Assembly (NCBI GenBank): GCA_013115125.1
Contig: JABANN010000023.1
Coordinates: forward strand, 62,001-122,549
Source: Perkinsus olseni
Lineage: Eukaryota
Direction of reading: 5' to 3'
DNA: 60,549 nt
Each line of letters starts with the position of its first letter. The first letter of the stretch is position 1. The notes under the pieces are model-generated. The model saw only the letters and a list, made by a program, of their open reading frames with translations. It searched no databases and was not told where the DNA came from. Positions 1,798-55,164 of this stretch are shown piece by piece. The position numbers and the translations under genes are program-made.

Positions 1798-2269
1798 CGG
1801 TAATGCTCCAACCTCGGCGGTACACGGGACGTCACACGAATTGTTCGGCTCTTCCCCAGATGATAATCATAACCGGGTGGAGGAGGGAGTTCCGCCCGTA
1901 GTGCCAGAGGTGCGTTGCTGCGGGAAATTCACTATTTTTCGGGAATTTTATTAAAAAAACCATGAGGAAAAATATGTCCTTTTAGTTGGTAAGTCTATCT
2001 ATTATTAAGCTCGGACTATACCGGCGAAAACGCGAAAAAAGTATATTTTTTACGCGATTGAGCCTCAATCATCGAGGGTCCACGAAGGAATACGCGAAGG
2101 CTTCCTATGGTGCCCAGCCCAATCGGCCACTCTCGTGTTGGCGAACTGATTCCCTCTCAACCACCTACCTCCACAGAAGCCCCCGAGGACGTAACCCCGC
2201 GAGTGACCGCTGTAAGGGTGTCCTCATCAACGGCATTCAAGCGAAGCCTTCTCAGCTTCGACAGTCCAG

Positions 2270-3990
2270 CTAGGACCTGAAGGTAGGAGTAGTTCGGCCG
2301 GCAGCAATGGTGGCACAACCTACCCGCTCTACATGGACGGGGGTCGCCATCGAAGGGCTTCCCATTCCGGAGAGCTCCTCGAGCTCGGTGTAATGGCCAA
2401 CTCGCTGCATCAAACGACTTGAAGTAAAAGTACGAGCACCAACGGAAGTCCGTGATCCTACTCCGTCCACGGTCCAACCTCAAGATACTTCAACTGCGGC
2501 AACACCATCGGGAGCGTCTCGGCCAGTGCATCCACAGCGGCTTGGGTGGTGAGGTGAAAGACTCTCAGCTCCACTAGGTTGCACTCTGAAAAGCATTACC
2601 GCAGCGTGGTTAAAAACCCCCACAAGAGCCGGGAAAGCGAGTACTCCCAACTCCTAACGGTCGTCGAAGAAGCGACGAGGGTGATATTCTCTTCGACGAA
2701 ACGCCCAAGGGTGCCTAGTTTCACGATCACCAACAGCAAGACGACCACCTAACGGAGTCCCCGACCTGTCCTCACCTCCATCCCGACGAAGCAGGGCTCC
2801 GGCAACTTCCAGGGCGGCACTCTCCGGTCGCACTCCCATCACCAGGCGACTCAGTCGAGGCAACACAACAGAGCCATCATCAGGCAGAAGGGTACAGCCC
2901 CTAACCACAGTGATCTGCAAGGGAACATCACTCAACACCACCGCTTCGACACTAACCTGAGTGAGCTCAAGGCGCCTGAGATTCTCCATCCGTGCTGGCA
3001 ATCTGACTGAGCGTTGAGGAGAAGGCTCCAAGATGAGACCATCCAGAACCAAAGACTTCACCGCAGCCATCGCCTAGACAACGCCGAGTAGTCTATGAGT
3101 GACCAGTCGTCCATCCAGGTACCCTGCTGTTCCCTAGAGTCCTTATTATTGGCACTGGATCTTCGCCCACGTCAGCACACTTGGCGAATCGCACAACACG
3201 GATGCTGTCATCCAGGGACTCCGCGATGCTTCCGAGTCTAGCTAGCACTCTCTTTGCTCTGAGGTGGTATGAAGTTGTGGGAATTGTGGTATGAGACTCA
3301 AAGGCATCGCTACTAGACTATCTTCTCTCATGTCCACTTCTCCGACGATCCCAAATTCTCCGACTAGAAGACGCGGCCGAATCGAAAAAAGCGAAAACCC
3401 TTCCTCCAGCCTGTCTGTCCCAGCCCAGCCCCAGGCCTACCGTGAATCACAGTGACCACTACGTATCACAGCCGTGAAGTCCACATCAAGGGTCTCCAAG
3501 TGGCCTTGGGCCCATCCATCCAAAAGACTATCAGGACCGAACCTCAGGGGGCTGTGACGAAGAAGATGCTGCACCGCCCTCAACGCTGGTCTGGGCAGGT
3601 CCGATCTGGCCACCAACTGACAGCCATGACCCAACCTCCCGAAGTGAGGATGTGCTCCACGCTCACCCCTCCAGTGGTGAGAGGATGACGAACAGCCTCG
3701 GCATGGAGACGGCTGGTCCTTGCAAAGTTGGCAGCATCAATAGGGTCCAGGAAACGCACAACGCGTATAAGAGGCCCCGTAGGGAGAACAGCGTCCCTAT
3801 CGTCAAGGAGACCTGAGGCATGCCAATACGATGAGGGCTGAGAAGCACAACCCCACCAATGCCCCGACCCGCGGGGATGTGTTCGCACGGCAGCCCAACA
3901 TCTCTCGCTGCCTTCATAACGAATAGGGGATCGAGTAGCCCTTCGTCCAGTGCCATGTTGAGCGCCGTCAATATGGACAATCGGACCTGT
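2270..3990 (-). CDS. F-box-like / leucine-rich-repeat-like protein (multi-exon)
   Basis: LPTGPLIRVVRFLDPIDAANFARTSR is F-box-like. Downstream VKSLVLDGL, LRRLELTQVSV and LPRLSRLVM are LRR-like. Boundaries approximate. Confidence 0.5.
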
Positions 3991-11790: not shown

Positions 11791-11907
11791 CTGTCTTGTA
11801 TGATTGCCGATATCGGTTTCAACGACTGATGGCCTGATTGTTGTGTTCGATAGTTCCTAGGGGGCCGCAACCGAATAGTCGGAGCTAGCAGTAGTCGGGC
11901 TCGGAGA

Positions 11908-14900
11908 ATGGCTGGCCTTCCCACTGGCGGCACTTCTGCCATTTACCGAGAGCCTGAGTGGTCCGGGCCGGCCAAACTGCCCATCTATCTCGAGTTCATC
12001 TCGAACGGGCAGGTGACGTGGCAACGAGTGCAGTATCCCGGTCAGCGGGGCTTTGCACAGGTCCTTAGGGAGGTCGATATACGAGATGACAGGAAGTGCT
12101 ACTTCATGTTTGGACGAGACCCGGCCGTGTGCGACATTCCCTTGACTAAATGGGAGCCTCGAAGTTCTCGACATCACGCCGTCCTTCAATTCAAGGAGGT
12201 CCTCAGCCCTTCACGTTCCCTCGATCGATCGTATCCTCGGTAGGGATCGAAGTCTTTCTATTTATACGACTTGAACTCTACCCATGGTACGGTGGTAGAC
12301 GGGAAGAAGATACCACCAGGAGAGGTAAGGTCCTTCCGTTGCCGCTTTGGACCTGCCCTCCTCAGTACTTCGAAGTGCATGTCGGTGACCAAGTACAGTT
12401 CAGCAGCACGGCTCCTAAGCTGACGCTGGTGATTCAGGGCCCGGAGGAGCTCCAGCCTCAAGAGACGGAGGTGAGAAGATCCGTTCGTTTCCAGTCACTT
12501 CTCAGTTGCCATTAGGTTGATCTCGCGGCTTTCCGAGAAGAGGCTCAGTCGGAGCGAGAGGTCGAGCGTCAGCGTCATGAACGCGATCGTGAACGGAGAC
12601 GAGTAGCCTCTGGAATCATACCACATTTCGCCAAACTCCGTGCTTTCAGGCTATGCGGCAACAAGAGCGAGCCGACCGTCGGGCAGACAAGGTGAACCCT
12701 AGAGCATCATCACGTAGTGGGAAGCTCCCCCTGCCTGGCCAGATCGCTGCGGTGGTCGGTGCGGCCGCCCATTCGTCGTCAACGGCACCACCCAGTGCTG
12801 CTTCTACTGGCGGTGTATTCCGCGGAGTAAGAGAGGATGATGGATTGGAGGAAGCCATGGTAAGGCCCACTACCACACCAACCGCTACTCAGCGTATTGG
12901 CCTACCTGTCTTAGATGGAGGCTGATGCTCAAGACGAGCTCACGAAAGGTGGGTATAGCCTCCTCCGACTAAAGATTCCTTCCGACTACTCTCCGACGGC
13001 TGAAGATTCCTTCCGACTACTAAAGATTCCTTCCGATTATTCGACAAAGTTTCTTGGTGTTATCTGCAGAACTTGATGTCTTCGACGAGACCGGCTTACA
13101 GATTGACACTCGTAAGTTGGAGCAACTCCAACTTAACGACAAACAACGTCAGCTCCTCCTCAAGATCGCGGATGTGAGTCTACCATCCCCTCTCCACCGG
13201 GTTCATGTATCATCATTACCTTCAGAAACGACGGAAGCTCGAGAGCAATCGGCAGATGCTGGAGACAGCCCAGATGGAAGCCGGTGGCGGGCCCAGTGAG
13301 TTCTCCCGGCCTTTGTGTAGAAATTGCCTGTATGCCACTAAATAAACTGTATAATACCTGTAACTATGCTAAGGCAGGCTACAAGGCCCACACGAAACCG
13401 CCGCTGGTGCCCGGCAGGTGTTCCTTCATGGCGCAATACGGGAGCCTTTGAAGATGAGGTGGAGAGAATAAAGAGCACACATCAGAAGAAGTCCCAAGGG
13501 GTAAGGATACCCTATCGGGGAGCGCCCGGAGTCGTCACGTCGTCATCTTCAGGATGCCAATAAGTTGTACAACCGAGTGGGCCGAATGGAGTCCGACCTC
13601 CAGACTATGACCGATAATTTGCTCTTGTCTCTCGGCATCAAGAACCCTATGCGGGACCGAATGAAACGGGTAAGGTTCCCCTCAGACGACGTATCACTAG
13701 TCGATAGCTTTGCCGCGAGACACCGATCTCCCGTTTCAGAAAGAGCTCTCGGAGATGTATGACACGGATGTCCTCGGCCTCGACGAAGAGGATGACTACT
13801 ACGACCAGGCCTCGGCGGAAATGCGAGAAAGTTCTCAAGCCGGAGTGAAGCAACCTCATAGTAATCAGCTCAAGACCGGCATGATAGGTAAACTGTGCTC
13901 ACTTGTAGGTGGGGAGACAGGAGAGTACGACGACCTCCCGAGCGTTAATGATGGTGCGGAGACTGCGAAGACCTTAACAGAGAAGAAAAAGGTGTGGTGC
14001 TTGTCGAGAGAGAGGAGGGAGTCATAGCGTCAGGCACTCGTATCATTACTGCGAGAGACGGTAACAGTGGTGCAGCAGAAGGAAGCCCAGATGGCTATGA
14101 AGAAGGCCACGGCTTCCAGGGTGAGAAGGGCTGTTGGTGTGCGTCTCAGGGTCGACGCTTGAAGCTTCAGGCTGACTCCCTCGATTCTTACATGGTTGAG
14201 AACGAGGTGAAGCTGATAGAGGGGGAGAAGGAGGCTGCCGAGAAGCGCGGGCTCGCCATAAAGGAGCGTCTAGAGGGTGAGGAGCCCCGTTACGGAATAG
14301 GGCCACCAGCTGGAGTACAGGTATCACCAAGCTGCTTTCCTTGGCGATGGCTGGCAGCACTTCGGTGGATGAAGTTGAGCAAGCGAAACAGGAGCAGCGG
14401 GAGCTCGAAGCGAAGAGAGCGGCCCGAGCGGAGGCCCTCGCTGCTGCCAAGGCTGCCAGGAAGGAAGAGGCTCAGCTTCGGAAGAAGGCGAGAATACAAG
14501 TGAGCTCTCACCGCAATGCAGTGTCGTGAACATAGCGATTGAGTGAAGGCCCCTTCCGATTCTATATTCGGGTCGGAGCTGGAAGCTGATGACTTGACGA
14601 AAGCTGCGATAAAGAGAAGAGCGGAACTCATGCATCAGCAGCAGCAACAGGTGAATACCAACGCCCGGACACCTTTCGAGTTGCCGCCTAGTAGGCACAT
14701 TAGTTCGAAGAGAGAGGTCTCTTTTTATTCCATTCAGGAGTCGTCAAGCTGGGTACCCGCAGAGGCCGTCAAGATAGATCCTAACGTTGGCGGTTTACAA
14801 GGACAGTCTGGAGGAAGCCTTTTAGACGCAGCCGAAGAGCCCGAGGGAGAAGAGGTATAGAGCAATTCTGATGTGTGCGATGATCCGCAGTCGTGCAGGA

Positions 14901-15030
14901 GGCTGAGGGTGTCCAGTGGCCTGAGATCCCCACACCACAGTATGATGATGCTGCGGAGGAGAGCACCTGGGTGCCGCCCGCTGATAATGACGAGAAGCAG
15001 GAAGCGCTTCGAAAGAAGCTAGGATATTAA
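11908..15030 (+). CDS. SLC4A1AP: Kanadaptin-like FHA-domain protein
   Basis: YREPEWSG start, FHA motifs FGRD / SRHHAVLQ / YLYDLNSTHGT, then QGPEE, DSLDSYM and the C-terminal WVPP...KKLGY* characteristic of kanadaptin. Confidence 0.82.
12962..13039. repeat. Short imperfect tandem repeat in a kanadaptin intron
   Basis: aagattccttccgacta-like unit present three times with variable spacers. Confidence 0.8.
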
Positions 15031-15139
15031 CTCTCCCGCCTGGCTTGAGTTGATCATTTGAGAAGGGGCAAGAACTCGCCCGAGCTTTTGTGAAGAAGCA
15101 CTTTGAAGGCAGTCAGGCTTAAGGGATCTCTAGCTTGAA

Positions 15140-15630
15140 GTACTTTATTCGAATCAGAACCCGGCAACCGGGGGAGTGCTTTCGAAGCGAGTAAGGGGGC
15201 AGCGACGGCAGCGAGTGATGGGTCACGGGAGGCGGACGAGAGTCGTGTAAGGGCTACAAGGCCTCTTTCACTAGCTCGGCATTTACGTTAAAACAGTAAA
15301 AAAAAACCTTAGAACACTGGTAAGATCGTTCCGCTAAAGGGATGAGAAGCGGTGAGTTCACTTGAGTCCTTTAGACCGCCCCGCGAGATCAATCCAGTCT
15401 AATGGGAATCCCATTATGGGATGATAAAATCCCTGCACTGACCTATAAGAACGTGGTTACGAGCAGGATTAGCTGATGATAGTGGTGCCAACATGATCTG
15501 GTTAACAAGGTCATGAAAGCCTACAATGGCACCGCTCATGCAACTACCGGTAGGATTCCTGTGACGATGCAGCCCACAATGGAGTCCGCTGAGTGGTTCA
15601 GGTTAGTGGCCACCGAGAGCTTCATACCAT
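15140..15630 (+). mobile_element. Decayed LTR-retrotransposon integrase remnant
   Basis: After removing a 14-nt scar, RPARSIQSNGMIKSLH*PIRTWLR resembles the rve PQSNG..ER.HR motif. KVMKAYNGTAHATTGRIP resembles the post-core AYN..H.TTG..P motif. Stops and frameshifts are present. Confidence 0.55.
15401..15422. repeat. 22-nt inverted-triplication scar (inferred target aatgggat)
   Basis: aatggga|atcccatt|atgggat = ABCDEFG|revcomp(ABCDEFGH)|BCDEFGH, exact. Confidence 0.9.
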
Positions 15631-15644
15631 GATGAGGTTACATG

Positions 15645-15689
15645 CTTCAGATAATTGTAGATGCGAATCGCATCTACGATTATCTGAAG
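15645..15689. repeat. Long palindrome, 22-bp arms, 1-nt spacer
   Basis: cttcagataattgtagatgcga-a-tcgcatctacgattatctgaag, with one mismatch at a CpG position. Confidence 0.9.
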
Positions 15690-16745
15690 GCGTGGTACAA
15701 TTATCTTCACGAAAACTCCTTCCGTCACAATTTCTTCGAGTGTGGTTGCCCCAACCGTAGACCGAAACGAGTGGCGAGGATCTAAAGAAAGCTAGCGCGC
15801 GCGGAAAGAGAAAACCAGGACGAAGTGGAGTACTCATCGTAACCCCCCGTCAGCCAGGAACCCGGCCCAGGTCGCCCTCCGGGCGACCATCACCCCAGGG
15901 GAGAAGGCCTAGCGTTATAGGAAATAGATTATCCGAGGGTTGGAAGTGTAGTCCCGGCCCGGGACTTGCCAGTGGAAGTGGCTCTGGATATAGTGTGGTA
16001 CGCGAGTCTCTCGTACACAATTTCCTCTGTCGTCGAGAGGAGAAATTGTGTTGAAAAGGAGAAAACTGTGGCAGAAGGAAGAGAATTGTGAGAGAAAAGA
16101 GAATTTAGGGGCAAGAGTGGCGTAGTGTAGGCACAGTCTTATATGTGCCACTCAGTTGCTGTTATGTGTTGTTGGCCGGTGGCACGCGTAGGCAACATTT
16201 GTAGGCAGCAGCGTTATCCCTATCGATCGATCGAGTTATACTCATTTTTGTGGGCTCTTGTCTTGTCCACACTGCGGGAACGGCCATCGAACTACAGAAC
16301 ACCGCCTTCGTCAGATCCTGTCGACCTTTGCGACCCCAGTTGGGTGCCGTGCCTTGCCCCATCTCGGAGGTTTTATCGATCAAAAAAGCTCGACAGGATC
16401 TTCGTGCCGCGCAAGGGTTCAGATTTACGCACAACAGCTATCCCAAGCCGTCTACTACATCTCAAGATCACGAGTAGTCCGAACTCAACATCTTACTCCT
16501 CGTCGTTCTTGAGGTTACTCTCCTTATACTTGAAGCTGAGTGACCCTTGAAACGTGCTTACGGGTTCATCAAGCTCGTGAGGTGAGGTTCCTAATCTTAG
16601 AAACCATCGTCGTGAGGGGTTAGTGAGCGAGGCCATATTGTGCGGAAAGGGCAATATCTGATCGCACGCAGGCATCCTCCTCCGGGAAGACTCCTCCCCT
16701 CCGACGTCGCCTAAACTTGTCCTCGTTGACGACTACGAGCGGAAT

Positions 16746-17224
16746 ATGATTATCGTGGCTTTATTGATGTTCACGGAACTGCTGGAATCCAGCAGCTGGA
16801 TTGTCGTCTCCTCCTGGTCCTTGGATTGGATGTCCTTCCCCTTGGTCTGTACCAAGGTTGGGATGACGGCTACGGCTTCTACTGCAAGATGAATATTAGG
16901 AAATCGACAGATTTGGAAATAGTGGCCGATGTCGAGATCAGTCGCGGCTTTAATAAGGCAAAATGCGTTGATTGCTACTTCGTGTATGGGGTCTGGACAG
17001 AGACCGGTGAGAGGAGTCATGCTGAGGTACATGTTGCTGGTCTGCTGGACTCCGAAGACGTCTCAAAGCCACCCGACGATCCCACCAGTGTCTGCCTGGC
17101 TCAGCTCAGTGAAGTACTCGGAATTGGTTCTAAGTGCCTCTGGTCAGGGTACCCAAAGAATGGTCGTATGATCTTCAAACTCTGCGACACTAGGTTCGAG
17201 CTATTACACTTTAGTCGTCAATAG
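16746..17224 (+). pseudogene. Frameshifted secreted Cys-containing protein, copy 1
   Basis: Signal-peptide-like MIIVALLMFTELL is out of frame with LDVLPLGLYQGWDD...KNGRMIFKLCD. Removing a 14-nt insertion restores one ORF. Paralog of 22702-23150. Confidence 0.7.
16780..16801. repeat. 22-nt inverted-triplication scar (inferred target tgctggat)
   Basis: tgctgga|atccagca|gctggat, exact. The paralog at ~22736 has the single unexpanded tgctggat. Confidence 0.92.
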
Positions 17225-17969
17225 TCTTGCCAATAATTCTGAGCTGTTCTTCATCTGACCGTTGCAGAGCTCTCCGTGTCAACTCCAAACTTCAGGAATT
17301 TTTCATTAGATTTTTATTAATGTTCTCATTTTCATAAAAATTGATCTCTCGGACACATTCTGTCCCGTGTGGTGAAGATTCTGTGTTCCATGCCAGTGGC
17401 TCGTCCGCTGTGGATGACACACATCATTGCCCTTGGGTCTTGCCAGTGGAAAAATACCTATCCAGTCCAATCATTTCAGAGGTTTCGGTGAAGTTCTGCG
17501 TCTTTGGTTAATCGTCATTTCGTCCAAAATAGATGATTCACACCACCACCACACCTTGCGAAAATCGGAGATGCTGCCTGGTCAGCAGCGTTGACTGATG
17601 AGCATGTTGTTTTGGCTCGGGATGGACCATAGAGACAACCACCAGCTAGGGCTTCAGATAGGCTAACCGTCTACCGCGGTAATCACCAGCGTTGCTCAGC
17701 AATGCACCAGGCTGGACCAGCCTGTCAGGTAGTCGGCGCCTTCACTCAATCGCACGCATCCTTATGCATTCGCACCCAGAAGGTGATGAGCGCTGGATAT
17801 CAAGGGTGAAAGAAGCAATCTAGCGGAAGCTCGAGATAGTGTTATCCATAAAACGTTGTAGCGCTGCTAGCTCGCGACACAACTTCATGTCGCTCGAGGC
17901 AGTCATGGGATACCAGCTTTCTTGAATCCCCCCACAGGCTCGCCTTTGTTCTCTCAGTGACTTGTACAC

Positions 17970-17991
17970 CTGTCTAGTAGACAGTGTCTAC
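17970..17991. repeat. 22-nt inverted-triplication scar (inferred target ctgtctac)
   Basis: ctgtcta|gtagacag|tgtctac, exact. Confidence 0.9.
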
Positions 17992-18102
17992 TGTACAACG
18001 CTTGCCTCATTTAAACTCGGACGCGGGAATTCCACGGCAGAACGAAGGGTTGGAAAATTCCGCTTGATATGAGCAATGTGAACTCCTGCACCGTAAGGTA
18101 TA

Positions 18103-18124
18103 CCGGTGACTCACCGGCGGTGAG
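18103..18124. repeat. 22-nt inverted-triplication scar (inferred target ccggtgag)
   Basis: ccggtga|ctcaccgg|cggtgag, exact. Confidence 0.9.
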
Positions 18125-18796
18125 GGAAATGCCGCGAAGCAGAAGGCAGCCCCGGGCAGATATCCAATCTCACTCGCTGTTGATGCTCCGCCGATGAGAA
18201 TTACTGTCGTCGAGTGGATGACGATGCCTTGGAGGAATTAACACTTTGTTGCCCTTACACGCGTTTGGTCATCGAAGTCGAACTTGAGACTCAGTGCTTA
18301 CCATCGCACGTCAGTCTGGGTCCGTTATTAGTGCTCAATCTACCACATGCTCCTCATGAACACAATTCGTCTTCCGGTCTAGACAATCTAGGTATCGGTG
18401 AAAAACGCCTCCTCCGTGTTCATACCGTATCGTTGCGATAGTATCGTAAAATTGAGAGGATGCAGAAGTTGATGAACTTTCCAGCAGAGCGTTTGCAATC
18501 ATGCGACGTCGTGATCTAAGATGATAATAATAATCTGATATCTTAAGAGGGGGCAAGCCCGAGATGCTCCGAAGAGAACCGAACAGCGGCTTCTGCGTGA
18601 GCATAACGGGAATGCAAACATACGAAATGTTTATACATGTTACAGATGCTTGGCTCGAGACTCGAGTAGAACAACTAAATTATTATGGACCTGGCAGTTG
18701 CCAGTAGACGAGGAATCGTTCATGAAACGATGAAAGCACTTGACGGAGACAAAACAAATGACGGTCTCAGACCACCGGTCTCCTCACCGCAGAGCA

Positions 18797-20512
18797 TCAA
18801 GCACTGATACCATCTAGATCTTGAACAGCTGATTCAACAGTCGTTTCATTCTTAGGCTTCCCGTCTCTTGTAAGAAGCCTTTTCCTCTGCAGCCGTCTTT
18901 CCCACGGAGATCCGGCCGTAGCCGAAGTATCGTCGCCTTCTGCCATGATACGCTCATTCATCCTAGCATCAGGTATGAGCCACAAAAAGAGGAGCGACGT
19001 CGTGCTGAGAACAATGAAAATCAGCGATACAATCCATAGGTTGTCGAAGGTGTGAGACTCATCGGCACCGGGTAGACCTCGAGGGGTGACTCCGAAGGGC
19101 TGGCTTATATAACCGGAGATGGGAGGAGTAACGTCATGACTACAATTCGATAAAGACGCCAACAGAGCAAACATAGTAGCCTCCATGTTCTTGGGGCACA
19201 AGTGAGAGAGAATGAGGAATCCTGGCATGAACTGTATCATGGATACCGCAGTAACCAGCGCGGTGCTGCCGACAGCAAAGACATGATCCGGGATGCCGAT
19301 CCGGACGTTGAGCCGTGAAAAGATGATCCGATCACCTAGCTGCATAACAACCAGCATCAGGGTCATCGTCCAATACACCGTACGATACTTCCAGGATTTC
19401 ATGAACTTGCCGAAAGCGAAGACCGCAAGGACAGAACACAGCTGCCCGGCTGTCCCCATGACCGAGCCGTAAAAGATATCGGAGAAATGAGGCCCCGTCG
19501 GGTACTGCTGCTCGTCGTTGGTGAAGAAATAGAGAGATGGGCCACCAACGGATATCATGGTTACTTCTAAAATGGTTCCGAAGAGCATCAGCTTGCCAAT
19601 GACCGGTCGCATTACGGCGAACGCGAACCCAGTAAGGAGTATAACGGTTGAGATTGCGGTCACAAAGGCGACCGTATTCGACTGCGCGGCCAAGGTGAGG
19701 ACAGAATAACCGACGGCAGTTACACCGATCACAACGGAGAGAATGATAATCGGCTTCTCCTTGCTCCAGAGCTGCTGGCGACGAGCTTTGGCTTCTTCTC
19801 TGGCAACAGGACATTCCTCAAAAAAGTTTAACCATGTGGGTATTACGACCGTCGACGAAGTGAAGACCGTAGTAAGTATCGCCCACTGTGAGCCTCCCAG
19901 CCCCCAAATGCCATCAGCGTATTCGACAATGAAGCCGACTAGGGGCGTGGCAAGTAGTCCAAGTAGTTGGTTGCCGGCCCAGACGTAACTGACCAGAGCT
20001 GGTCCTGACTCGGGGACGCCCGCTAGGCGTCGAGAGTACACAGCCTCGGCAAGCAGGTCATACCCCATGAGCTGAATGTCAGCCAAAAATAACCCAACCG
20101 CCCCAGTGGAGGCATTACTATCAACCAGGTTGAGGGATATCACCAGGATCGTACCGCCGAGACCGAGGATGCTCATAATCATCATATAAGGGAGCTTGTG
20201 GTAGCCGAGTATTGGGAATGAGTCGGAGACCACCCCTAACCAGGGTTTCATCGCCCAAGGCATGTCAATGACAGAGACGAAACGGTCTATGTCGGGCCCG
20301 GGTACATTCATAGCTCTAAAGTAGAACCGAGCACTTGAAGCAAGCATCGAAGAACTGTAGCCCTTGGCCCAGTGGATGGTGAAATGCAACATGAGGACAA
20401 GCCTACATCCATAGACCCTGCACAGCATCGTAATGGCCCCGATAATGGGGAGCTTCTTCAGGGAGGACCCTTGAGTTGCCGAGGCCCGAGAAAGAACGGG
20501 GGACTGGGGCAT
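18797..20512 (-). CDS. BT1-family folate/biopterin transporter (MFS), single exon
   Basis: Uninterrupted 571-aa ORF with many TM helices and BT1 motifs MPWAMKPWLGVVSDSFPILGYHKLPY, LCPKNMEATMFALLASLSN and FDNLW. Confidence 0.92.
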   Translation of the reverse strand: MPQSPVLSRASATQGSSLKKLPIIGAITMLCRVYGCRLVLMLHFTIHWAKGYSSSMLASSARFYFRAMNVPGPDIDRFVSVIDMPWAMKPWLGVVSDSFPILGYHKLPYMMIMSILGLGGTILVISLNLVDSNASTGAVGLFLADIQLMGYDLLAEAVYSRRLAGVPESGPALVSYVWAGNQLLGLLATPLVGFIVEYADGIWGLGGSQWAILTTVFTSSTVVIPTWLNFFEECPVAREEAKARRQQLWSKEKPIIILSVVIGVTAVGYSVLTLAAQSNTVAFVTAISTVILLTGFAFAVMRPVIGKLMLFGTILEVTMISVGGPSLYFFTNDEQQYPTGPHFSDIFYGSVMGTAGQLCSVLAVFAFGKFMKSWKYRTVYWTMTLMLVVMQLGDRIIFSRLNVRIGIPDHVFAVGSTALVTAVSMIQFMPGFLILSHLCPKNMEATMFALLASLSNCSHDVTPPISGYISQPFGVTPRGLPGADESHTFDNLWIVSLIFIVLSTTSLLFLWLIPDARMNERIMAEGDDTSATAGSPWERRLQRKRLLTRDGKPKNETTVESAVQDLDGISA

Positions 20513-21129
20513 AGTCGAGAAAAATAGTCAATAACAACACCTGGGCCGAACGCCTACGGCGCCGGGCGGCAGCGAATAATCGACAGACTCAAATCATTGA
20601 CCCTCTTTTGGAAACATATGCAGACTCAGTGGGCGATTCACTTGATGAAAGACGCATTTCCTCTACGTATTCGGCCAAGTCAGGACTTAGCTATAGGACA
20701 CAGCAGAACCATGTGGAGCTAAGGAGGAAAGAGAGCTAAAGCGCGACCTTGGGCGTGAAAGTATGCACTCAGGTACTTGTCTTCACATGATGCGACCGCA
20801 GCTGCTCCGACAGCCAGGCTGATGGTGTCCATTGCTCATTCTCAGTGTACATGGCGCAGCTTCGAATTCAAGTTCTAAGACCAGCTACGAGTGGCTTCGT
20901 GAGGCCCGGAAGTTGGGTGCAAGACAGAGAGGTGTAGTGAGTCCTGTGTTTGCGTGCAGGTGCGTAGCTCGTATAGCCACAGATTCTGTTCTACAGATGC
21001 GACAGCGCAACTTGATGATACCATTCTCTTAGTCCTTGGCCTGGTCCCGAAGCAGCTGGAGGATTGAGAACTCTATGTGACAGCGTCTGAGGTGGACTTA
21101 CTTTGCTTAACCCATGAGAGCAAGCGCCG

Positions 21130-21151
21130 TTTGCGACTCGCAAATTGCAAG
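21130..21151. repeat. 22-nt inverted-triplication scar (inferred target tttgcgag), one mismatch
   Basis: tttgcga|ctcgcaaa|ttgcaag; expected ttgcgag, differing by CpG->CpA. Confidence 0.8.
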
Positions 21152-21489
21152 TACTCATTCGCTAATCACTCGAACGAGCACTGACCGCTGAGGATACTCG
21201 GATAACCCTCGCTCGCGAGGGAAGTGTGTAGACCATTCGGCGCTTTAGAGAACGCCTCTGGGAGCGGTCGAAGGCAAGTTGAGGTCCTGGATCTTTGCGG
21301 TCTACGTTCAGGTCTACTGTCAGACATTGACCGATGCCCTGCTCATTGCCCCGGTAACCGCTGCGCTAAACGATCGGATTCGTTCGTACCCTCGCGGCGT
21401 CACTCCAGGAGACATGATAGAGTTGAAGCCTTCAACTCGAAGGCTAAAGGGAGCACGAATGGCCTTGTGACTCCTCCCCCTCCGAGTTT

Positions 21490-22335
21490 AGCGTGAGCGA
21501 GCGTGAGAGACCATCACTTCCGTGTAGAGTAAGTATCGACGAACTGAACAAAACACTGAACTCTGGAGAAAACACAATCGTGCGTTTCTTTCTGAGATCA
21601 CATCGACTACGTGTGAGGTATTTTGCAATTGTGAACTCTCTACAGCAATGTTAGAACGTGTGCAAGCAATGTCAAGGGCAAAAAACAGGCCAGACGGACT
21701 TGAGAAAGTCTGCCGGGTCAGGAGACGCTCGGAGTCGACGAAACCACCCTTGAATGAGCGATCTGAAGCAGTTATAGACGAGAAGGGTCCGAAGAGCAGG
21801 ATCAGGGTACTGTGCCTTACTCTGCTGGCGTGTAGTACGGCAGCTTCATCAACACCACTGCAGCGATCTGCAGGAGCTCTTCCGGTGGATGATGTCCCTC
21901 CTCGAGGAGCTGCTTCAAACCGTTATACTCAACGAACGTTCGAGCCAGAGCTGCTGATCGCTGAACGATGAGACTCAGGGTTGACAGCGCTAGAGGGGAC
22001 CTCGAAGCAAGTAGAGCCTAAAACATCCAGCTCCGCAACATAACTCGAGAGGCACCCAGAAAACCATGAAAAGTAGCGAGTGATGGGAAGACTGCACAAA
22101 ACTCACTGATTGGATGGGTTGCCAGTCAGCCTCGATGGACTCCTCGATCTTCCTGTCATTTGGCGGTGCCAGCCGGAGGATTAGGGATAACAGTGCGAGG
22201 CTTGGGTAGCTCAAACCTGACGGTACCCCTGCATGAGCCGCAGTCGGAGAGGGGTCGACCCACCTTTAGCGGCGGAACTCTTGCCAAGGACCTCCCGAAA
22301 TACGTAGAGCAAAGGCCCTTCGAGCACTGTGTGAA
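21490..22335 (-). pseudogene. Diverged partial duplicate of the 3' end and downstream flank of the large gene (source ~24210-25106)
   Basis: Collinear similarity, e.g. ctctggagaaaacacaatcgt, gtctgccgggtcaggagacgctcggagtcgacgaaacca and gccagccggaggattagggataacagtgcgaggctt occur in both places. Introns are retained. Confidence 0.9.
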
Positions 22336-22348
22336 CTGTGTGGGCCTC

Positions 22349-22490
22349 CAGGCGGAGACCATGCTTCGGATACGGGTATGACGGAGAAGGGGAGTGTTGT
22401 GGAGGAAGTTGGTGGCGAGACGATTGGCCAGCAGAAGGCGAATAAGACAGAGCGAGAAGAGGGCCGACTTCCGGCAAATGCTCATAGACA
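22349..22490 (+). pseudogene. Displaced copy of a Prp40 exon fragment (source 10126-10269)
   Basis: Near-identical cag-gcgg.gaccatgcttcggatacgggtatgacgga...cggcaaatgctcatagaca with a few substitutions and a 2-nt deletion. Confidence 0.92.
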
Positions 22491-22701
22491 TCGAATTCGA
22501 ACCTTCACACCGGGAGAGTACTTTTCGAACGATTAAAGGGGGCAGCGGCAGCAGCTCGCTGCGGTGATGGATAGAAGCAGGTGAGCGAGAGTCGTGAAAG
22601 GGCGTCTTGTGCGGAAAGGGACAGCAGCTCATGGCACACAACCCTTCTTCTTTCTTCCACGGTTGCCTAGACTCAACCTTGTAGACAACTACGAGTAGAT
22701 T

Positions 22702-23150
22702 ATGACTATCAAAGCTCCGCTGGTGTTGATAACACTGCTGGATTGTGGTCTCCTCCTCTGCTCGGAGCGGATGTGCTTCCCGTTGGTCTGTACGCAAGTT
22801 GGGATGACGATAACCGCTTCTTCTGCAAGACGGACATTAGAAAATCGACAGAAATGGAAATAGTGGCCGATGTTGATATCAGTCACGGCTGGAATGGAGC
22901 GAAATGCGTTAATTGCCGCTTCGAGTACGGCGTCTGGACAGAGACCGGTGATAGGAGTGGTCGTGACGAGGCACATGTGGCTGCTCTGCTAGGCTCCGAT
23001 GGGGTCTCGGGGCCCCCCAACGATTCCACGAGTGCCTGCCTGGCTGAGCTCGGTGAAAGAGTCGGGATTGGCTACGATTGCCACTGGCAAGCGTATCCGA
23101 AAAATGGTCGTATGATCTTCAAACTCTGTGACGCTATGCCTTCCGAATGA
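22702..23150 (+). pseudogene. Frameshifted secreted Cys-containing protein, copy 2
   Basis: MTIKAPLVLITLLDCGLLL is out of frame with GADVLPVGLYASWDD...KNGRMIFKLCD because of a 1-nt deletion relative to copy 1. Confidence 0.65.
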
Positions 23151-24433
23151 CCATTATGACTCAAAAACGTCTTGAAGTCAATAAGACAATTCACAGCTAA
23201 AACTCGCCGGAAGAGTAAGCTTGGGAAAAGACTCCATCTCTTCGTTCTGACCTCGGATTACTTATGATTAACAACAGAGCAACAATAGGTGTCCAGAGCT
23301 GAGGTGGATGCGTGTTTGCATGCGCAACAGCCAAGCGTGCTAGCGACCCGTCCGTCATCAGCGAACGGCCGATGTTATACGTCGGAGTCGTCATCTCATT
23401 CGCTCCCGCCTTTGATAAGAGTAGTTTAGGTGGGTCACTTCTGGTGACTCCAGTGATTCGCACTGCGAGTGCAACAGAAGGTTCATCTGGCAGGAGTCCT
23501 GTCCGTGAAGATCTCCCAGCTTTCTCCTGCTGTGATGTTACCTACCACCCAGCTAGCGGGCCCTCAGAGAAGGCGCGATGTAAAGCTGGACTCCCATGCG
23601 GAAGACCACACAGCCGGCACCTGGTCACCGATCAAGGACCACCGAATCGTCAGTATTGATCGCATTGCGAGAGTACATAGCTCGCTCAGCATACTGCAGG
23701 GCCTGCTACCTCCGCGAAGCTGCTACCCACCGTACCAAGATGAGGCTCCCAAGAATTTCGTGGAGAGAGCTCGCCGTTGGTGAACCATTACCGACCTCTG
23801 CTCTGCCTGGAGCCCCTTCACCTTGAGAAGTCGGCTAAGGGCTAGCTCATCTCTAAGGAGAACAAGTCGTCGAGCGGCAATGCGAGCTAGTTCCACGTGG
23901 GCAGGGGTTAATCCTGCGGCGATGACTAGTGCAGAGTTGGAGGCATCGCGAGGCTCGAAGAGCTATCCGCGCCACCATAGCAGGCACTCACATCACCAGA
24001 TCCCTGGCTCTGGCAGACTCAAGGCCGTTCTACCACACGCACACAGCGTGCACTAGGCCAGACAGGATACCCACCCGATATTATCGTGCCGGTAAGCGCG
24101 AATGACTTTGACACCAGCGATGGCAGCACGCTCCCATCCCAAGTGTCGCAGTCGATTCAACTACTTACGTGGACACGACAGTTGAAGGCCACGGAGAGCC
24201 CTTCCGAGCGAAGCGTGAGCGAGCCAGCCACCATTAATTGCTCTCCCGAAAAGTATAAAGTTAGTATTGACTAACTAAATAGAACACTGGGCTCTGGAGA
24301 AAACACAATCGTACGTGATTATTTCTGCTTCCGTCGGTATGACCAACAAGACTACATCGACTACGTTTGAGTGGGGGGGGGCAATTATGAACTCTCTACA
24401 GCAATGTTAGATCGGTAACGTGTGCAGGCATTT

Positions 24434-27400
24434 TCAAGGGCATAAATCAGGCCATACAGATTTGAGGAAGTCTGCCGGGTCAGGAGACGCTCGGAGTCGA
24501 CGAAACCAACCTTGAATGAGAGACCTGAAGTAGTGATGGACGTGTTCGGCCCTAGAGAATGGGTTATGAAGGCAGCGTGCTAGGACTCACTCTGCTGGGG
24601 TGTAGTACGGCAGCTTCATCATAACGACTGCAGCGATCTGTAGGAGCTCTTCTGGTGGGTGATGTCCCCCCTCGAGGAGCTGCTTCAACCCGTTGTACTC
24701 AACAAACGTTCGAGCTAATGCTGCTGATCGCTGGACGAGGAGGCTCAGAGTTGACAGCGCCAGAGGAGACTTCGAAGCCAGCAGGGCCTGAAGCATCCTA
24801 CTCTCCTCCATAACTCGAGCGCCCGCCACGGAAACACGTAGATTCGCGAGTGATGAAAAGACTGCACGAGACTCACTGATTGAATCGGCTGCCAGTCGGC
24901 CTCGATCGACTCCTCGATGTTCCTGTCATTTGGTGGTGCCAGCCGGAGGATTAGGGATAACAGTGCGAGGCTTAGGTAGCTCAAACCTGACAATACCCCT
25001 GCATGAGCCGCAGTCGGGGCCAAACAAGACCTACCTTTAGCGGTGGGACTTTTGCCGAGGACCTCCCGAAATACGTAAAGCAGGGGGCCATCGAGTACAG
25101 TGTGAAGCAGATCTTCACATGACGTAGAGCTCAATCGTAGGAGCAGAATCAAACACACTGTGAGTCTGAAGAGAGGCGATTCCCCAACCATGGAGAGAGA
25201 AGTCCTTACGCGTGCTCTATGACGGAGTCCGATAGCTCCCGCAGCTTCAAAGGCGTGCATGCCTTGAGGAAACCTCTGAGCCACTCTGCCGCAACGACTC
25301 CTGAAAATGGGCAGACTAAGTGGGACCGCATCGATCCGATCGATGCACGGCGATCGAACTTTGAGCGGAGGCTCACCTGAGGAGGAGGCAGACTGCCGAG
25401 CGACTTGCCCATCTGCTCCGAGGGCCGAAGCAATACTGACAGTTGTGGATCGTGCATACAGGAGAGACATGAGCCGTGAGACGACCTGAGATCATGATAC
25501 GAAGATACCATCGCACAGTGTCTTGTCGTCCCCCTCCTCACCGGGAAGATGTAGGGTGACCTGTTGGGTCCCCCTTCGGCAACCAGAGACAGAGCCGCCT
25601 CTGCCAGGACATGCAGGGTTGGCTCTGCCGATGACGCTGGTAGGTACGTAACGGCAGTGTTGAGGAACTGAGGAAAACGGATGCTACCCGAGGGCAATTT
25701 CAACAGGTGAGTCTCACTCGAACAATGGCAGTTTGCAATTGATCAGCTCCTAGCAAGACCGACTGCCGCGTATTCTGCCCTGAGAGGAGCGCCAAGGCAG
25801 GCCGGTACATCTCCCGTGACGACAGTGCCTGAGAGGAGAGAGCAGTCCAGAATCGATGGCAAAGGACGGAGAGGACGGTACCTTGACACCCCTGAGGAGC
25901 GGGGGCTCCACCTCCTCCCCAGCACGCGGAACCTCAATCTTGAATTCTCGAATGACGTTGACGAGGTATCGCTCCGGGTCGCACATGCCACCCGGAAGAC
26001 GGTCCGTTTCAATAGCCGAGCGTAGACACTCGACCAGCGGGGCCTGGAACTGTTCTGGAATCTCGGGGGCCTGCGAGCGAGGAGAACAGTGAGCCAGCTC
26101 CGAAGCAGACACGGAGGCTCACCTCGAAGACCTTGGCCTCGTAAAGTAGCCGTCCCATCAGCGAAAGGAGCAATGGCTGCTTATCCCTCCGGCTGAGCCC
26201 CGAGAGGAACGTGGCTGCGACGTCCCGGAAGACCTCAACGTTCGAGTTGCCTCCACAATGGGAAAGCTCGGCAGCCAGCACTTCAAGCAGCCTTGCCGCG
26301 AAGACCGGGTCATCGCCCTCCAGGGCCAGACGCAGAGTGTCGTAGCGAGTGGACCATGCAAAGGAGATGTACCGTAGAATGGCCCCTTTGAGGGCGTCCT
26401 TGCCAGACGACAGGAACCCTCCTACACACTCGACCAAGTAGCTGTAGAGAGCACTGGCTTCGGTGGAGGATGAGGCAGGGGGAGGGTTGTCGAGCAGGAA
26501 GAAGAGCGCATCCAGACCGGACAGCTCCCCGGACGACGTGTCCGCTATGTGCTCCTCACCGCCAGTCAGGAAGAGCAGGGCCAGGTCAGGACCACATCTA
26601 TTCAACGTGCTCAGTGCCAACCAACGGGAAGCATCGTTGCTCAGCTTGCCGAATCGCTGCAGCCGGCTAGGACTCCACCTCACGCAGCGATCGACGTAGC
26701 GTACCGAGCCCTCACCACTGGGAACGACCGGACGCTGATCGACTTGACGGGCCACCTCCCGAAGAAGTAGTAGCCGAGAGAGGTCGTGCCGCGCATCGTA
26801 ACGACAGAGACTAGTGATGCAGCACACAGGCAGTAGAGAGTCATACCGCAGAACCTCGCCAGCAGCATCGTAGACAGATCCCGTTCCCGAAGAGAGAAGG
26901 ATCCTGCCCAGAGCCAGAGAGGCCTGCCGCGGCATTGACGGGTGGAGGGCAAAGATGGCCCTTATCGCTTGGGGTGCTCGGGCACACATGGTGGACAGGA
27001 TTGCCAGGCCCGCCCTACTGCTAGCCTGACGACTCTGCAGCAGGTGCGCGATCAATGGCACACCATCGGGCGTCTTGGCGAGCTCTACTTGCTTGTGGGC
27101 CGGTACACAGTTCGGGACATTCCGAGGGTCGCGCTCCAGGCAGGCGGCGATGAGCTCAACTGCCGTCTCTGACAAGGCCGTATCTTTGGAAGTGATAGCT
27201 GCAGCGACTTGACCGAAGACCGGTGATTCTAGAGTGAGCAGGCATTGTGTGGAGTAGACGAATGCTTCCGAGTCTTGGGTGGGGGCGAGGATCATCCGCA
27301 GGAGCCATCTCATAGACAGGAGACTGACATCATCGGACAACTTGCCGCCGAAGAGAAGTCGATTCACCTGGACACAGCGAGCTCAGTCTCAGGATCCCAA

Positions 27401-36725: not shown

Positions 36726-37652
36726 CTACTCGAAGTAGCATCCAAATACCATGGCCGTGCCCAACAGGAAGCGCTGAGAAGAAGGAAGGAGGACGAATGA
36801 ACTCAACCGAACGTTGGAATCTCAATACAATCAATGACAAGTTGTCATCGGACGATCGTAGTTGTCAATGACAACTACGATCGACTTCTCAACCTTTGTG
36901 GTAGGAGATATTCTAGTTAACACCCCTGTGCCCCTATGGATATCGACAGAAGAGATTATCTATGGCTTTCAGTCACAGTAGGAAGCACTTCGACCAACAA
37001 TACAACCACTACTAGTTGTATCGAGTAAGTTTAGTAGTAGAACGATGGACGCAACGTCACGCGAGTGTATGTGGCCAACGGAGCGATCAACACGCCCCTC
37101 CCCAAGGTGGTGGTATTACACTTTGGTACGTGTATGATGCCCAGTTGTCCGTAGACTCGTCCCACAGTCCTTTACTACACACTCTTATACCCTGACCCTC
37201 ATTCTTGGATATTAAAACTTGAACCTAATGAGCAGACAAACTCCCCACCATTTATGCAATAAATTCAGTAGATGCCGTGACCAGGAATCGAACCTGAGAC
37301 CTACCATGATCTTATGTCTAGGTATGTTACACTCTTCCCTAACGCCATCCTTAATCTCCGCACACAGCTCCAACACCCACTGCTTGGTCTCCTCTTCACT
37401 CACATACTCCTCTACAGCCACGCAGCAATGGCCGTACGCCAGTCACCCGAAGGACTCACGATCCTCGAGCTTCGCCTTCATCGCACGCTCACATATCGCT
37501 TTAACCTTATTCGGTATGAACCTACAAGACGAAACCCGCACAGGTTCGATTCCCCCCTCCTCCTGCTAGTACCGTTCATTCTCCTTAGGCTCCATGATGT
37601 AGGTGTTCTCCCACTCATATGTTTGCTTCATACCAGGAGGAAGGGCGTCCAT
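36726..37652 (-). CDS. Tctex-1 family dynein light chain (TCTEX1D2/DYNLT2B-like)
   Basis: WENTYIMEP, IPRHKIMVQV, GQGIRVCSKGLWDESTDNWASY, and final exon RFLLGTAMVFGCYFE*. Confidence 0.88.
36834..36883. repeat. Paired 1-nt-spacer palindromes in the last Tctex intron
   Basis: atgacaa-g-ttgtcat followed by cgatcgtagttgtca-a-tgacaactacgatcg (15-bp arms), both centred on tgacaa. Confidence 0.85.
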
Positions 37653-46039: not shown

Positions 46040-46143
46040 CGAGTCAACCAGTGCGGGTGTTACTACTAACATTATGCCATGTTGTACGTACAACGGGACA
46101 GCTCGTGTCCCGCTTGTGCCTCCCACGGATTAAAATCATTTTC

Positions 46144-47342: not shown

Positions 47343-47422
47343 CTCACTAATAGTGAAAAAGGCAGAAAGGGCGATCGAGCATCTCATAGTGAGTCACTAT
47401 GAGATGCTCGATCGACCTTTCT
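47343..47422. repeat. Double-hairpin scar with perfect 21-bp-arm palindrome (inferred target ctcactat)
   Basis: ctcacta-a-tagtga at 47343-47356, then cgatcgagcatctcatagtga-g-tcactatgagatgctcgatcg at 47372-47414, extended by agaaagg/cctttct. Confidence 0.92.
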
Positions 47423-52671: not shown

Positions 52672-55164
52672 TCAGGTGAAGACTTTGAGTCGCTCCTTAA
52701 TGTGATCTCTACAGAGGGGACACTCCGAGCCGAGCCTCTCGCTACATCGGGTGCAGACACACATGTGGCGACACGGCATGAGCACAACGGTACCTAATTG
52801 AGGGGAAAATGGCGGCTGAGGTATTCTGCACGACACCTACGGAGTTCGGTCTGGCATACCACACACAGTGACTCGTCCTTGAGGCTCTTGGAGGTGTCCG
52901 GGCCTGTTGGGGAGGACACAAACTCAGTATCCACAAATGAGTGAAAAATTCCGGAGACGAAATTCCGTGGCTCGATGGTAGATTGTGAACATGCCGCAAC
53001 TATCGGTATACCCCTGATGTATAATAAAGCCATGAACGTCCGAAGGAGTACTGAAATTGATGTCACCATAGGATTGGTATCCTGACTGACACGATACAGC
53101 AGCTACACCTTATGGTGACAATACTCAGACTAAGTGCATGTTCATGACAGCAACGAATCCATAGCGGTACCCGTCCCATGTTCTTTCTCCCGTCTGCGGG
53201 CCTCCGCTTCAGCCTCTACGGCCTGGCCTTTCAATCGCCGTACTTTGCCAGTGAGGAACTCCATTCGCTCTTCCAGACCATGCCACTCAGCTGAGCTCGT
53301 GGGGAACTCTGAACGCCAGCAACGAGCTGACGGCAGTCCGAGAGTAGCTGACAGCGTCCATCGCACCTTCAACTTCAGCGTTGTACGACAGCAAGGCGTC
53401 GTCTAGTTGATCCAGTCTCGAGACAATATCGTGGAAGGTCCGGGACTCTCCTAAACCCAGTGCTTGATAATAGGACGTTCCAGCGGCGATTGCCTACGAT
53501 GCTGGGAGGGCGGCTGCTGCTGCGCGGTCTCGTCGAGCGGCTCAGTGAGTTCTCCGCTGCCCTCAACTTGCGGTGACGGCATCTCGTCAACACGACGCTC
53601 GGCAGTCGATGAGGATGACGAAGATGAGGAGCCTCCTTTCACTTCAGCCTCTTCCTCCCGAACCGGCGAGGAGCTGCTTGACGCTGCACCATGCTCTCCC
53701 TTCGATGGAGATTTCCCTTCGCCCGGATGCGCGCGAGAGGAGTTCTGCGCTCTCGCCGACCGCCTGACAACAGGCGGTAGAATGGCAGCCGTCAGCAGAG
53801 GCGAACCTACGATGTGGCGCCCATCGCTAGAGGGGTTATGCCATCATAGGCCTTCTTGTGAGGGTCCGCTTTGTACTCTAGAAGGACCCTCGCCACCGAG
53901 CGCATCTCTCCCTCCACAGCCAAGTGCAGAGGGGTGTAACTATGACGATGTATGCGCTGAACTGCAGTGCCGCTGCCGGAGTACCCGAAGGCGTCCTGCA
54001 CGTTCGGGTCAGCGCCAGCATGCAGGAGGGCCCGAGCAGTGTCAGCTGACTTGGCAGAGAAGAGCAGAGAGCTTGGCCTGGCATCACCACTCATCCTTAG
54101 AAACGGGGCCAACCGCGGACGAGGCCTTTGCAAGCACCTACACTTTAGCGCCCGCCCGGATGAGCTCCTCGGCCATGTCCGCATGGTCCGCTCTAACTTG
54201 TGCTGCTAGGGGGGTTAGTCTATGACGATTGAGACCTTCCAAATCGACGCCTAGGGCAGAAGAGACGATGACACCCTCAAGTGGTGACGCCGCGACGTCG
54301 CAAGCCGGCTCCTGTCACCAACTCCCGGACGAGTTCAAGGAGATTCGGAAGTTCCGAATCGGAGCCCCGCGGTTGCCGCCATTCGAGCAGATCCCCGTTG
54401 ACGACACCACACCGTTGCGGCACCCACCTGGGTAGTCCAAGAGGAGGGCTAATGCGTAGGAGTTGTTGCAAACGTGAAGGACCTGTGGACCACCGGAGTA
54501 AAGAAAGAAGTTGGCCGCTACCCGCTTCCTACACTATTCCTGAGCTGGCACTTGGCAGCCAGCAGCATCCTCACGATGGTCGCAGCAACCTTCCCGCTCT
54601 CGGGATTCATGACCTGACGGGGCATCCAAGACTGCTTGCCTCTGCTGTTCGGATGGGCTTACGGCGTAGTGTAAGGCATTAAAGCCCGTAGTCGAGTCAG
54701 CGTATTTAACAGCAGAGGGACGCGTCTCGATGATCGCCTTCACCACTCCAGAATGGCCGTTCCTAGAACGGCATGGGCCATACTCCTGGCTGGAAGCAAC
54801 CCACCACCCACCTCGCTGCTTCACAAAGCGCCAGGCCTAGGTCACTATCACTGTAGCGGCCGGAAGCCAAGAGAAACGGATTTGCTGGTATGGACTCGGA
54901 AGAGACAGTGGTCGTGTTGTCCGAGTCCCGGAGCAGTAGCCGCACAATCTGACGATGATTCAATCGCCCGGACTACCGCTACCACCGCGTCTTTACGTCG
55001 GTCTTGCCGCCTTTGGCAGCGCTCAGTAGGGCCTGTCCGGCCACTGCACCTCTAGAGGACGATGACGATGAATGTGACCTCTGCTTCGGTTCCAGGCCCG
55101 AACCGTGCCTGGGGTTTTGTGACGGAGTATCGCCCGTGTCATTGTCCACTGACTGTTGCCGCAT
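52672..55164 (-). CDS. Ankyrin-repeat protein with coiled coil and C-terminal RING-HC (putative E3 ligase)
   Basis: Ankyrin motifs (NGHSGVVKAII, GFNALHYA, LLHAGADPNVQD, YTPLHLAV, GITPL). Spliced C-terminus CVVCQTELR|TVVLMPCRHMCVCTRCSERLGSECPLCRDHIKERLKVFT*. Confidence 0.85.

Follow-up and report, generated by a model that had tools for sequence, protein, structure and literature searches.

Stereotyped 22-nucleotide inverted triplications in Perkinsus olseni as probable excision scars of a hAT-type transposon

Introduction

What process writes the same short word forwards, backwards and forwards again at unrelated places of one genome? This question is raised by a stretch of 60,549 nucleotides (nt) of Perkinsus olseni (assembly GCA_013115125.1, contig JABANN010000023.1, positions 62,001 to 122,549 of the forward strand), the whole of which is called the window here and supplies all positions given below. 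Several 22-nt sequences in the window follow a single grammar, namely the first seven letters of an 8-mer X, the reverse complement (revcomp) of all eight letters and then the last seven letters of X, or X[1-7]+revcomp(X)+X[2-8], which is 14 nt longer than X. A first-pass annotation, made from the letters of the window alone, had noticed this grammar and attributed it to the opening and annealing of hairpins left by a hAT transposase. The analysis reported here leads to a similar reading: the 22-mers are very probably donor-site scars of a cut-and-paste transposon that makes an 8-base-pair (bp) target duplication and leaves hairpins on the flanking DNA, by a chemistry of the hAT type known from Ac and Hermes.

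Results

When the sites were read again, the grammar proved exact at 15401, 16780, 17970 and 18103, as annotated, and the single mismatch claimed at 21130 (a changed base in the third arm) and the two claimed at 18427-18448 (changed bases in the middle arm) were found as described. An exhaustive scan of the window with words of length k returned four exact matches at k=8, against 2.3e-4 expected under uniform composition (about 2e-4 in the annotation), and none at k=5-7 or k=9-15. With zero, one, two and three broken constraints allowed, and with expectations drawn from 40 composition-matched order-3 Markov simulations of the window, the matches at k=8 numbered 4, 4, 3 and 8 (expected 0, 0.05, 0.3 and 2.45); those at k=7 were at chance (0, 1, 1 and 34; expected 0, 0.15, 2.45 and 24), and at k=9 none was present in any of the four classes, which is also the chance level. 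A further scan, in which zero to three letters were dropped from each outer arm at k=6-11, gave exact matches solely at k=8 with one letter dropped on either side, the few remaining hits being the same four sites parsed differently. The comparison with 7-, 9- and 10-mer variants and simulated controls that the annotation had proposed thus places the enrichment, within the window, solely at the 8-mer with one-base offsets. The scar grammar is real in this window and lies far above chance.

These scans also brought to light sites beyond those annotated, three with one mismatch (2056, 21422 and 54344), one with two (17709), a more worn candidate at 16677 and two compound structures at 36834 and 47343. 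The best 13 scars, on which the counts below are based, comprise the four exact and four one-mismatch sites, 17709, 18427, 16677 and the two compound scars (Table 1); 25323 and 45544, two-mismatch sites with an ambiguous parse, and six other three-mismatch matches were left out. All four one-mismatch sites (2056, 21130, 21422 and 54344) differ from the grammar by transitions only, as expected under decay. The flanks of the scars are mutually unrelated and the sequence of each scar derives from its own flanks, so that all 14 added letters can be traced to the local 8-mer and no foreign letters are common to the scars. P-element footprints consist of remnants of the inverted ends of the element at the donor site. 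This kind of footprint was rejected as a candidate because the added letters all come from the local 8-mer and none is foreign.

Table 1. Scars, empty site and associated features in the window (X1, X7 and X8 are sequencing runs described in the text)
Position	Strand	Feature	Target word	Evidence or remark
2056..2077		Scar with one transition (third arm)	GATTGAGG	Scan
15401..15422		Exact 22-nt scar	AATGGGAT	Scan, excision model; identical in X1 DNA contig 10939-16088
15645..15689		45-nt palindrome, single central base, 22-nt arms, one mismatch		No matching 8-mer found
16677..16698		Older scar, two changed bases in middle arm, three broken constraints		Paralog lacks exactly 14 nt here
16746..17221	+	Gene for a secreted-type, signal-peptide-bearing protein of about 150 amino acids		Frame analysis, protein searches
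16780..16801		Exact 22-nt scar	TGCTGGAT	After codon 13 of the small secreted-protein gene; shifts its frame
17709..17730		Older scar, two changed bases in third arm	AGGCTGGT	Scan
17970..17991		Exact 22-nt scar	CTGTCTAC	Scan, excision model
18103..18124		Exact 22-nt scar	CCGGTGAG	Scan, excision model
18427..18448		Older scar, two changed bases in middle arm		Spanned by X8 contig 18392-19983
21130..21151		Scar with one transition (third arm)	TTTGCGAG	Scan
21422..21443		Scar with one transition (third arm)	GTTGAAGG	Bridged by X7 contig 21113-21725
22736..22743		Unscarred 8-mer, empty site of the 16780 scar	TGCTGGAT	Paralogous copy B
36834..36883		Compound scar	ATGACAAC	Left fold-back of 8 nt, 4 nt of filler, right fold-back of 15 nt
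47343..47422		Compound scar	CTCACTAT	Right fold-back preceded by a short left one and about 7 nt of filler
54344..54365		Scar with one transition (third arm)	TTCGGAAC	Scan

A second line of evidence comes from palindromes. Those with a single central nucleotide are in excess (12 with a stem of at least 8, against 1.5 expected, and 3 with a stem of at least 10, against 0.0), whereas those with a centre of zero or two nucleotides are at chance (0 against 1.0 and 1 against 1.1, respectively). Pairs of such odd palindromes whose deduced 8-mers agree make up six structures, the four exact and the two compound scars, and none occurred in 30 simulations. In the compound scars (at 47343 the right flank folds back over 21 nt exactly, or over 29 nt if one mismatch is allowed), the two fold-backs are separate, with centres spaced by 7 nt in the original sequence, a spacing that is predicted by a staggered 8-bp duplication with one-base-offset hairpins and not by a single template switch. 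In each of the four exact scars position 8 pairs with position 22 and position 15 with position 1, the palindromes being centred on the complement of the flank base; at the right centre of the 36834 scar the base itself is found instead, as expected if the hairpin was nicked on the other side of its tip. The length of the duplication is given by k=8 being the only enriched word length and by the exact 8-mers that the compound scars share. The 45-nt palindrome at 15645 is possibly a one-sided outcome of the same excision process.

The deduced target words themselves are biased. T at position 2 and A at position 7 each occur in 8 of the 13 scars, that is, in 16 of 26 positions where about 23% would be expected (p=2.9e-5), so the words follow the nTnnnnAn preference of the Ac/Hermes type. 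This is the target preference of Hermes, which makes an 8-bp duplication (PMC10368747; this and the other papers are cited in extract).

If the 22-mers were produced from a plain 8-mer, homologous loci should include some in which that 8-mer is still intact. Comparison of the window with itself identified two copies of one sequence, copy A (16639-17192) and copy B (22607-23136), about 80% identical, in which the plain word TGCTGGAT of copy B stands opposite the 22-mer of copy A at 16780. Opposite this scar the alignment opens a gap that measures exactly 14 nt, and it opens one of the same length opposite the worn candidate 16677; these two scars, of about 13, are the ones that the empty-site test covered. 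For another pair of paralogous segments (21250-21700 and 23960-24460) the alignment stops short of the 21422 scar and hence offers no empty-site comparison there.

Both copies encode a conserved peptide on the plus strand, and protein searches with it matched two P. olseni proteins, P0037 (partial, 118 amino acids) and P0047 (150 amino acids), whose N-termini (...MFTQLLDC(R/G)LLLVLGL...) run continuously through the scar site. In copy A, the frame opened by the ATG at 16746 reads MIIVALLMFTELL, then falls out of frame and meets a stop after 48 codons, and a frame further along (16790-17221) shares 92% identity with P0047 over residues 8-150; to match the two proteins, both frames of the window have to be joined across the 14 nt. 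The relatives read through the site in one frame and therefore lack the 14 letters. The check for an empty 8-mer that the annotation had asked for thus has a positive result, with the plain word present in the paralog and the uninterrupted site present in the orthologous proteins of P. olseni. The scar at 16780 thus shifts the reading frame of a small secreted-protein gene after codon 13. The annotated role of the scars as a source of frameshifts is accordingly borne out once, by the ortholog frames at 16780. We considered whether the 16780 scar is rescued by a nearby one-base insertion (15 nt added in all) and rejected this, the orthologs showing a one-base loss in copy B and a plain frameshift in copy A.

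Copy B, at 22607-23147 in this comparison, is one base shorter than copy A and the P. olseni orthologs directly behind the codons for ...LLDCGLLL, and therefore its signal-peptide frame and its conserved-domain frame do not join; copy B is possibly a pseudogene, or its upstream part may come from further exons, as might be the case in a 276-amino-acid relative (P0038). Adjoining it, at 22349-22493, is a copy (94% identity) of a 147-nt piece (10126-10272) of an FF-domain gene located at 9661-10550. A contig of run X9, one of the runs described below, continues from this piece into copy-B sequence, showing that the chimeric arrangement is transcribed.

The insertions are supported by sequencing data, a point on which the annotation had made its proposal depend. 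Logan contigs of a DNA run, X1, from which the assembly may have been made, agree with the window at every position of 10939-16088 and 16061-21735. Three runs from three other studies (X7, X8 and X9) have contigs with GT..AG joints of 41-122 nt and are thus RNA-like, and some of these contigs bridge scars with 0-1 differences: 16677 in X7 only, 16780 in X7 and X8, 18427 in X8 and 21422 in X7. In all, contigs of four runs from four studies carry the scars with 0-1 differences. An assembly artefact is unlikely because contigs from the runs of other studies bridge the scars, and the scars occur in transcripts.

The scars are unevenly distributed. Nine of the 13 lie within 15401-21443, which is 10% of the window (p=4.8e-7), on either side of a gene for a BT1-family transporter, and the four exact ones all fall within 2.7 kilobases (kb). 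This cluster between 15.4 and 21.4 kb would fit repeated short-range hops of one element. Because the one-mismatch scars carry transitions only and others carry two or three changes, the series suggests an activity spread over time up to the recent past.

A proposed excision mechanism

From the fixed geometry we infer a transposon, the nucleases that would open its hairpins and an annealing step. The element would insert into the 8-mer X, producing X-element-X. At excision, the transposase would first nick each element end one base into the flank, and the 3'-OH of the flank would attack the opposite strand at the element end, forming a flank hairpin with one unpaired base at its tip. Host nucleases would then cut each hairpin 8 nt or more from its tip, on the 3' side. 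Unfolding would leave two 3' tails, with the sequence revcomp(X)... on the left flank and X... on the right one, which would be complementary over exactly the 8-bp duplication and could anneal. Trimming of the flaps, filling of the gaps and ligation would yield X[1-7]+revcomp(X)+X[2-8], with 14 nt more than the original 8-mer. When hAT flank hairpins are modelled stepwise in code, annealing over 8 nt yields the window sequence at each of the four exact loci. Hairpins lacking the offset would give X+revcomp(X)+X, which the arm-offset scan did not find in the window. The flank hairpin of Hermes is said to be offset by one base, a finding credited to Zhou et al. 2004. The annotated scheme of an 8-bp duplication, one-base-offset hairpins on both flanks and annealing over the inverted 8-mer is thus supported by the empty 8-mers, the compound scars, the odd palindromes, the target words and the model.

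How uniform the repair is can be judged from scars that keep both copies of the target, minus one base each, and have solely fold-back letters between them. Those with 8 such letters number four, those with 4-7 or 9-16 number zero, and a single candidate, at 51439, has three. This pattern agrees better with annealing along the whole duplication than with hairpins opened at random points. Footprints with two fold-back letters number nine distinct cases against about 3.1 expected, including a false positive at 17034, which lies in conserved coding sequence and is due to chance. The annotated description of the 22-mer as a dominant single outcome is not established: the compound scars and three unassigned odd palindromes represent other outcomes, and dominance cannot be established because, besides these, small footprints and deletions are unrecognisable without a reference. 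Just downstream of the three-letter candidate, the segment 51567-51835 consists of a 50-nt tandem repeat that holds a gap of 99 N (51696-51794).

A bolder version of the proposal, in which a hAT-like element is hopping over short ranges now or has done so very recently, and in which donor repair is almost deterministic through opening far from the tip and 8-bp annealing, is a tentative one, and we lean against it.

Several observations weigh against the attribution of the scars to a hAT-type element. Pfam scans found no transposase domain in 89 of the 107 window open reading frames (ORFs) of at least 110 amino acids; the annotated absence of the transposase from the window holds for these 89, the extent of the scans. 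The same domain scans revealed no Hermes-like gene, hAT dimerisation domain or BED finger, and no inverted ends were found in the window. At a strict setting (8-bp direct repeats and 14-nt inverted ends with at most two mismatches) the window contains no intact element. The contigs of the four runs, which are apparently from one strain and in which rare variants are dropped, contain neither an element-bearing nor an empty allele at the scar loci. The empty-site evidence comes from only two scars (16780 and 16677) of about 13, and the odd palindromes at 15645, 15950 and 25328 are not tied to any 8-mer. Finally, Merlin-like genes are reported in P. marinus (PMC8101967), so that the element may belong to a superfamily other than hAT. 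With respect to the annotated hAT origin, then, the geometry and the nTnnnnAn words fit, and neither a transposase nor a filled allele was seen; judged from the geometry alone, hAT would be the best fit among superfamilies.

Alternative explanations

The alternative that survives best, although we regard it as unlikely, keeps the scar mechanism and takes the element from a different superfamily that duplicates about 8 bp (Mutator-like, Merlin or another). In its favour, the Mutator-like element Muta1 makes 8-9 bp duplications and flank hairpins (PMC5499845), P. marinus has two intact ORFs of the Merlin-like type, a family that makes 8-9 bp duplications (PMC8101967), and the ORFs scanned include no hAT gene (89 of 107). 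However, the Muta1 hairpin of 43+43=86 nt implies that there is no unpaired base at the tip, and more than 90% of Muta1 excisions in yeast are precise (PMC5499845). The scars of the window depart from both features, since they are imprecise and every centre is a single base derived from the flank, and their target bias is the one quoted for Hermes (PMC10368747).

Much less probable is that the 22-mers arose without any transposon, by template switching or fold-back synthesis during replication. Copying forward, back and forward again would indeed yield an inverted triplication, and odd palindromes of other lengths are present in the window. Short template-switch mutations have variable switch points and lengths. 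The scars, in contrast, have a fixed geometry, the exact cases all being 8-mers with one-base offsets on both sides and none occurring at k=5-7 or 9-15; the two fold-backs of the compound scars keep their exact spacing of 7 nt, and the nTnnnnAn bias would have no reason to arise. An artefact of assembly or sequencing, or a functional motif under selection (protein-binding or an RNA hairpin), can hardly be entertained, for although palindromic artefacts are known in some library types and the motifs found here can fold, the scars are carried by contigs of four studies (in three of which the contigs are spliced and RNA-like), are mutually unrelated and derived from their own flanks, in one case interrupt a coding frame, and have no match in Rfam.

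Neighbouring features

The only long ORF near the scars, at 18797-20512 on the minus strand, encodes the BT1-family transporter, which is 90% identical to a P. olseni protein, its other top matches also being from Perkinsus; on this basis the window is nuclear DNA of a Perkinsus at or near P. olseni. The 18427 scar lies beyond the stop codon of this gene, within the contigs that cover it. Upstream of the cluster, a highly expressed gene at 11890-15000 (plus strand) has many very short GT..AG introns (41-122 nt), the joints being present in RNA-like contigs of three runs. At 10700-10990 the word depth in X1 is about 1500-3500 instead of about 86, with many short divergent contigs, which marks a high-copy repeat; it has no ARAGORN or Rfam match, and the tRNA and Rfam scans gave no match.

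Three segments have some features of mobile elements. The first, 15255-16637, is about 1.38 kb present in copy A and absent from copy B, and includes both the scar at 15401 and the palindrome at 15645. Its inverted ends are imperfect (GGCCTC..TCACTA) and adjoin TA on both sides, with no 8-bp repeat; X1 covers it at a raised DNA depth of 106-142, compared with about 86, and other contigs part from it at 15894 and 16369. The segment may represent a transposon of another kind, one that targets TA, or a plain indel. The second was found by a loose search (11-nt inverted ends and a direct repeat, each with at most one mismatch): 29906-30186, 281 nt long, has an exact 8-bp flanking repeat GTGCTCTC and 11-nt inverted ends with one mismatch. 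As a candidate element it was set aside as probably due to chance, simulations giving 0.3 per window and the segment being located in a long minus-strand ORF. Its end motif is not common to the third, an inverted-repeat element at 46137-46375 with 44-nt arms that are 98% complementary and 143 nt apart. This one contains six direct and two inverted copies of a unit of about 21 nt that includes CTAAGGAG, an arrangement that resembles the sub-terminal repeats serving as binding sites in a non-autonomous transposon; around the element there is no clean target duplication.

Implications and comparison with known systems

Excision footprints are normally unrecognisable without the pre-insertion sequence, whereas a scar that adds 14 nt in this form identifies itself. 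If every excision leaves such a scar, Perkinsus genomes could be searched throughout for past excisions, and these could be counted and dated with no need of an outgroup. The scars imply recent activity of a cut-and-paste element, because four of them are undecayed and the closest annotated P. olseni relatives of the disrupted gene, which are 92% identical in protein and not shown to be the same locus, lack the 16780 scar. The disrupted gene gives this activity a concrete mutational cost and, if the proposal is true, steady frameshift knock-outs would be expected, for example in the secreted-protein gene families of the parasite. The scars are also a read-out of hairpin opening and end joining in the Perkinsus lineage and would, if the proposal is true, point to an unusual repertoire of these activities in this branch of the alveolates; no literature on Ku70 and end joining in Perkinsus was found. 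An active element native to these shellfish parasites could also be turned into a genetic tool for them. Among titles, abstract openings and passages of the literature we found no report of such scars or of hAT elements in Perkinsus.

The closest parallels are the footprints of Ac/Ds in plants, Saccharomyces cerevisiae and Candida albicans, which share with the Perkinsus scars the fold-back palindromes, the 8-bp duplication and joints at microhomology (PMC5873905, PMC1978519). Ac/Ds cleaves at the flanking 5' nucleotide, and its footprints contain inserted palindromes whose central base is the complement of the one adjoining the element (PMC5873905, PMC1978519); in yeast the arms can be as long as 20 nt, and 85-100% of joints show microhomology (PMC5873905). 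Unlike the scars described here, those footprints are heterogeneous in the passages cited, with 28 kinds among 128 Candida revertants, mostly having 0-3 fold-back letters and small deletions. The recognisable Perkinsus scars represent one fixed product, both copies minus one base each together with a full 8-nt inverted copy. In the passages cited on Ac/Ds footprints we found no description of this exact 22-nt product, which may nonetheless be recorded in footprint tables of that literature. Hermes shares the 8-bp duplication and the nTnnnnAn preference (PMC10368747).

Other systems share parts of the process. In V(D)J recombination, which depends on RAG and Artemis, the off-centre opening of a flank hairpin also leaves templated palindromic letters, the P nucleotides (PMC1978519, PMC5499845). 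Unlike in the Perkinsus scars, there is no target duplication, hence no register for annealing and no triplication. RAG hairpins are not known to have an unpaired base at the tip, and Artemis opens them within a few bases of it. Muta1 and other Mutator-like elements resemble the proposed element in their 8-9 bp duplications and flank hairpins, and differ from it in a hairpin of 43+43 nt without an offset and in excision that is mostly precise (PMC5499845). Excision repair of mPing similarly uses the duplicated target word as microhomology for rejoining (PMC4561436), but there a 3-bp duplication leads to precise restoration, whereas in Perkinsus annealing would take place between the inverted copies that the hairpins produce and 14 nt are gained. 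In all, the mechanism belongs to a known class, that of hAT-type excision footprints, which is met here in a new organism and in an unusually stereotyped form that identifies itself.

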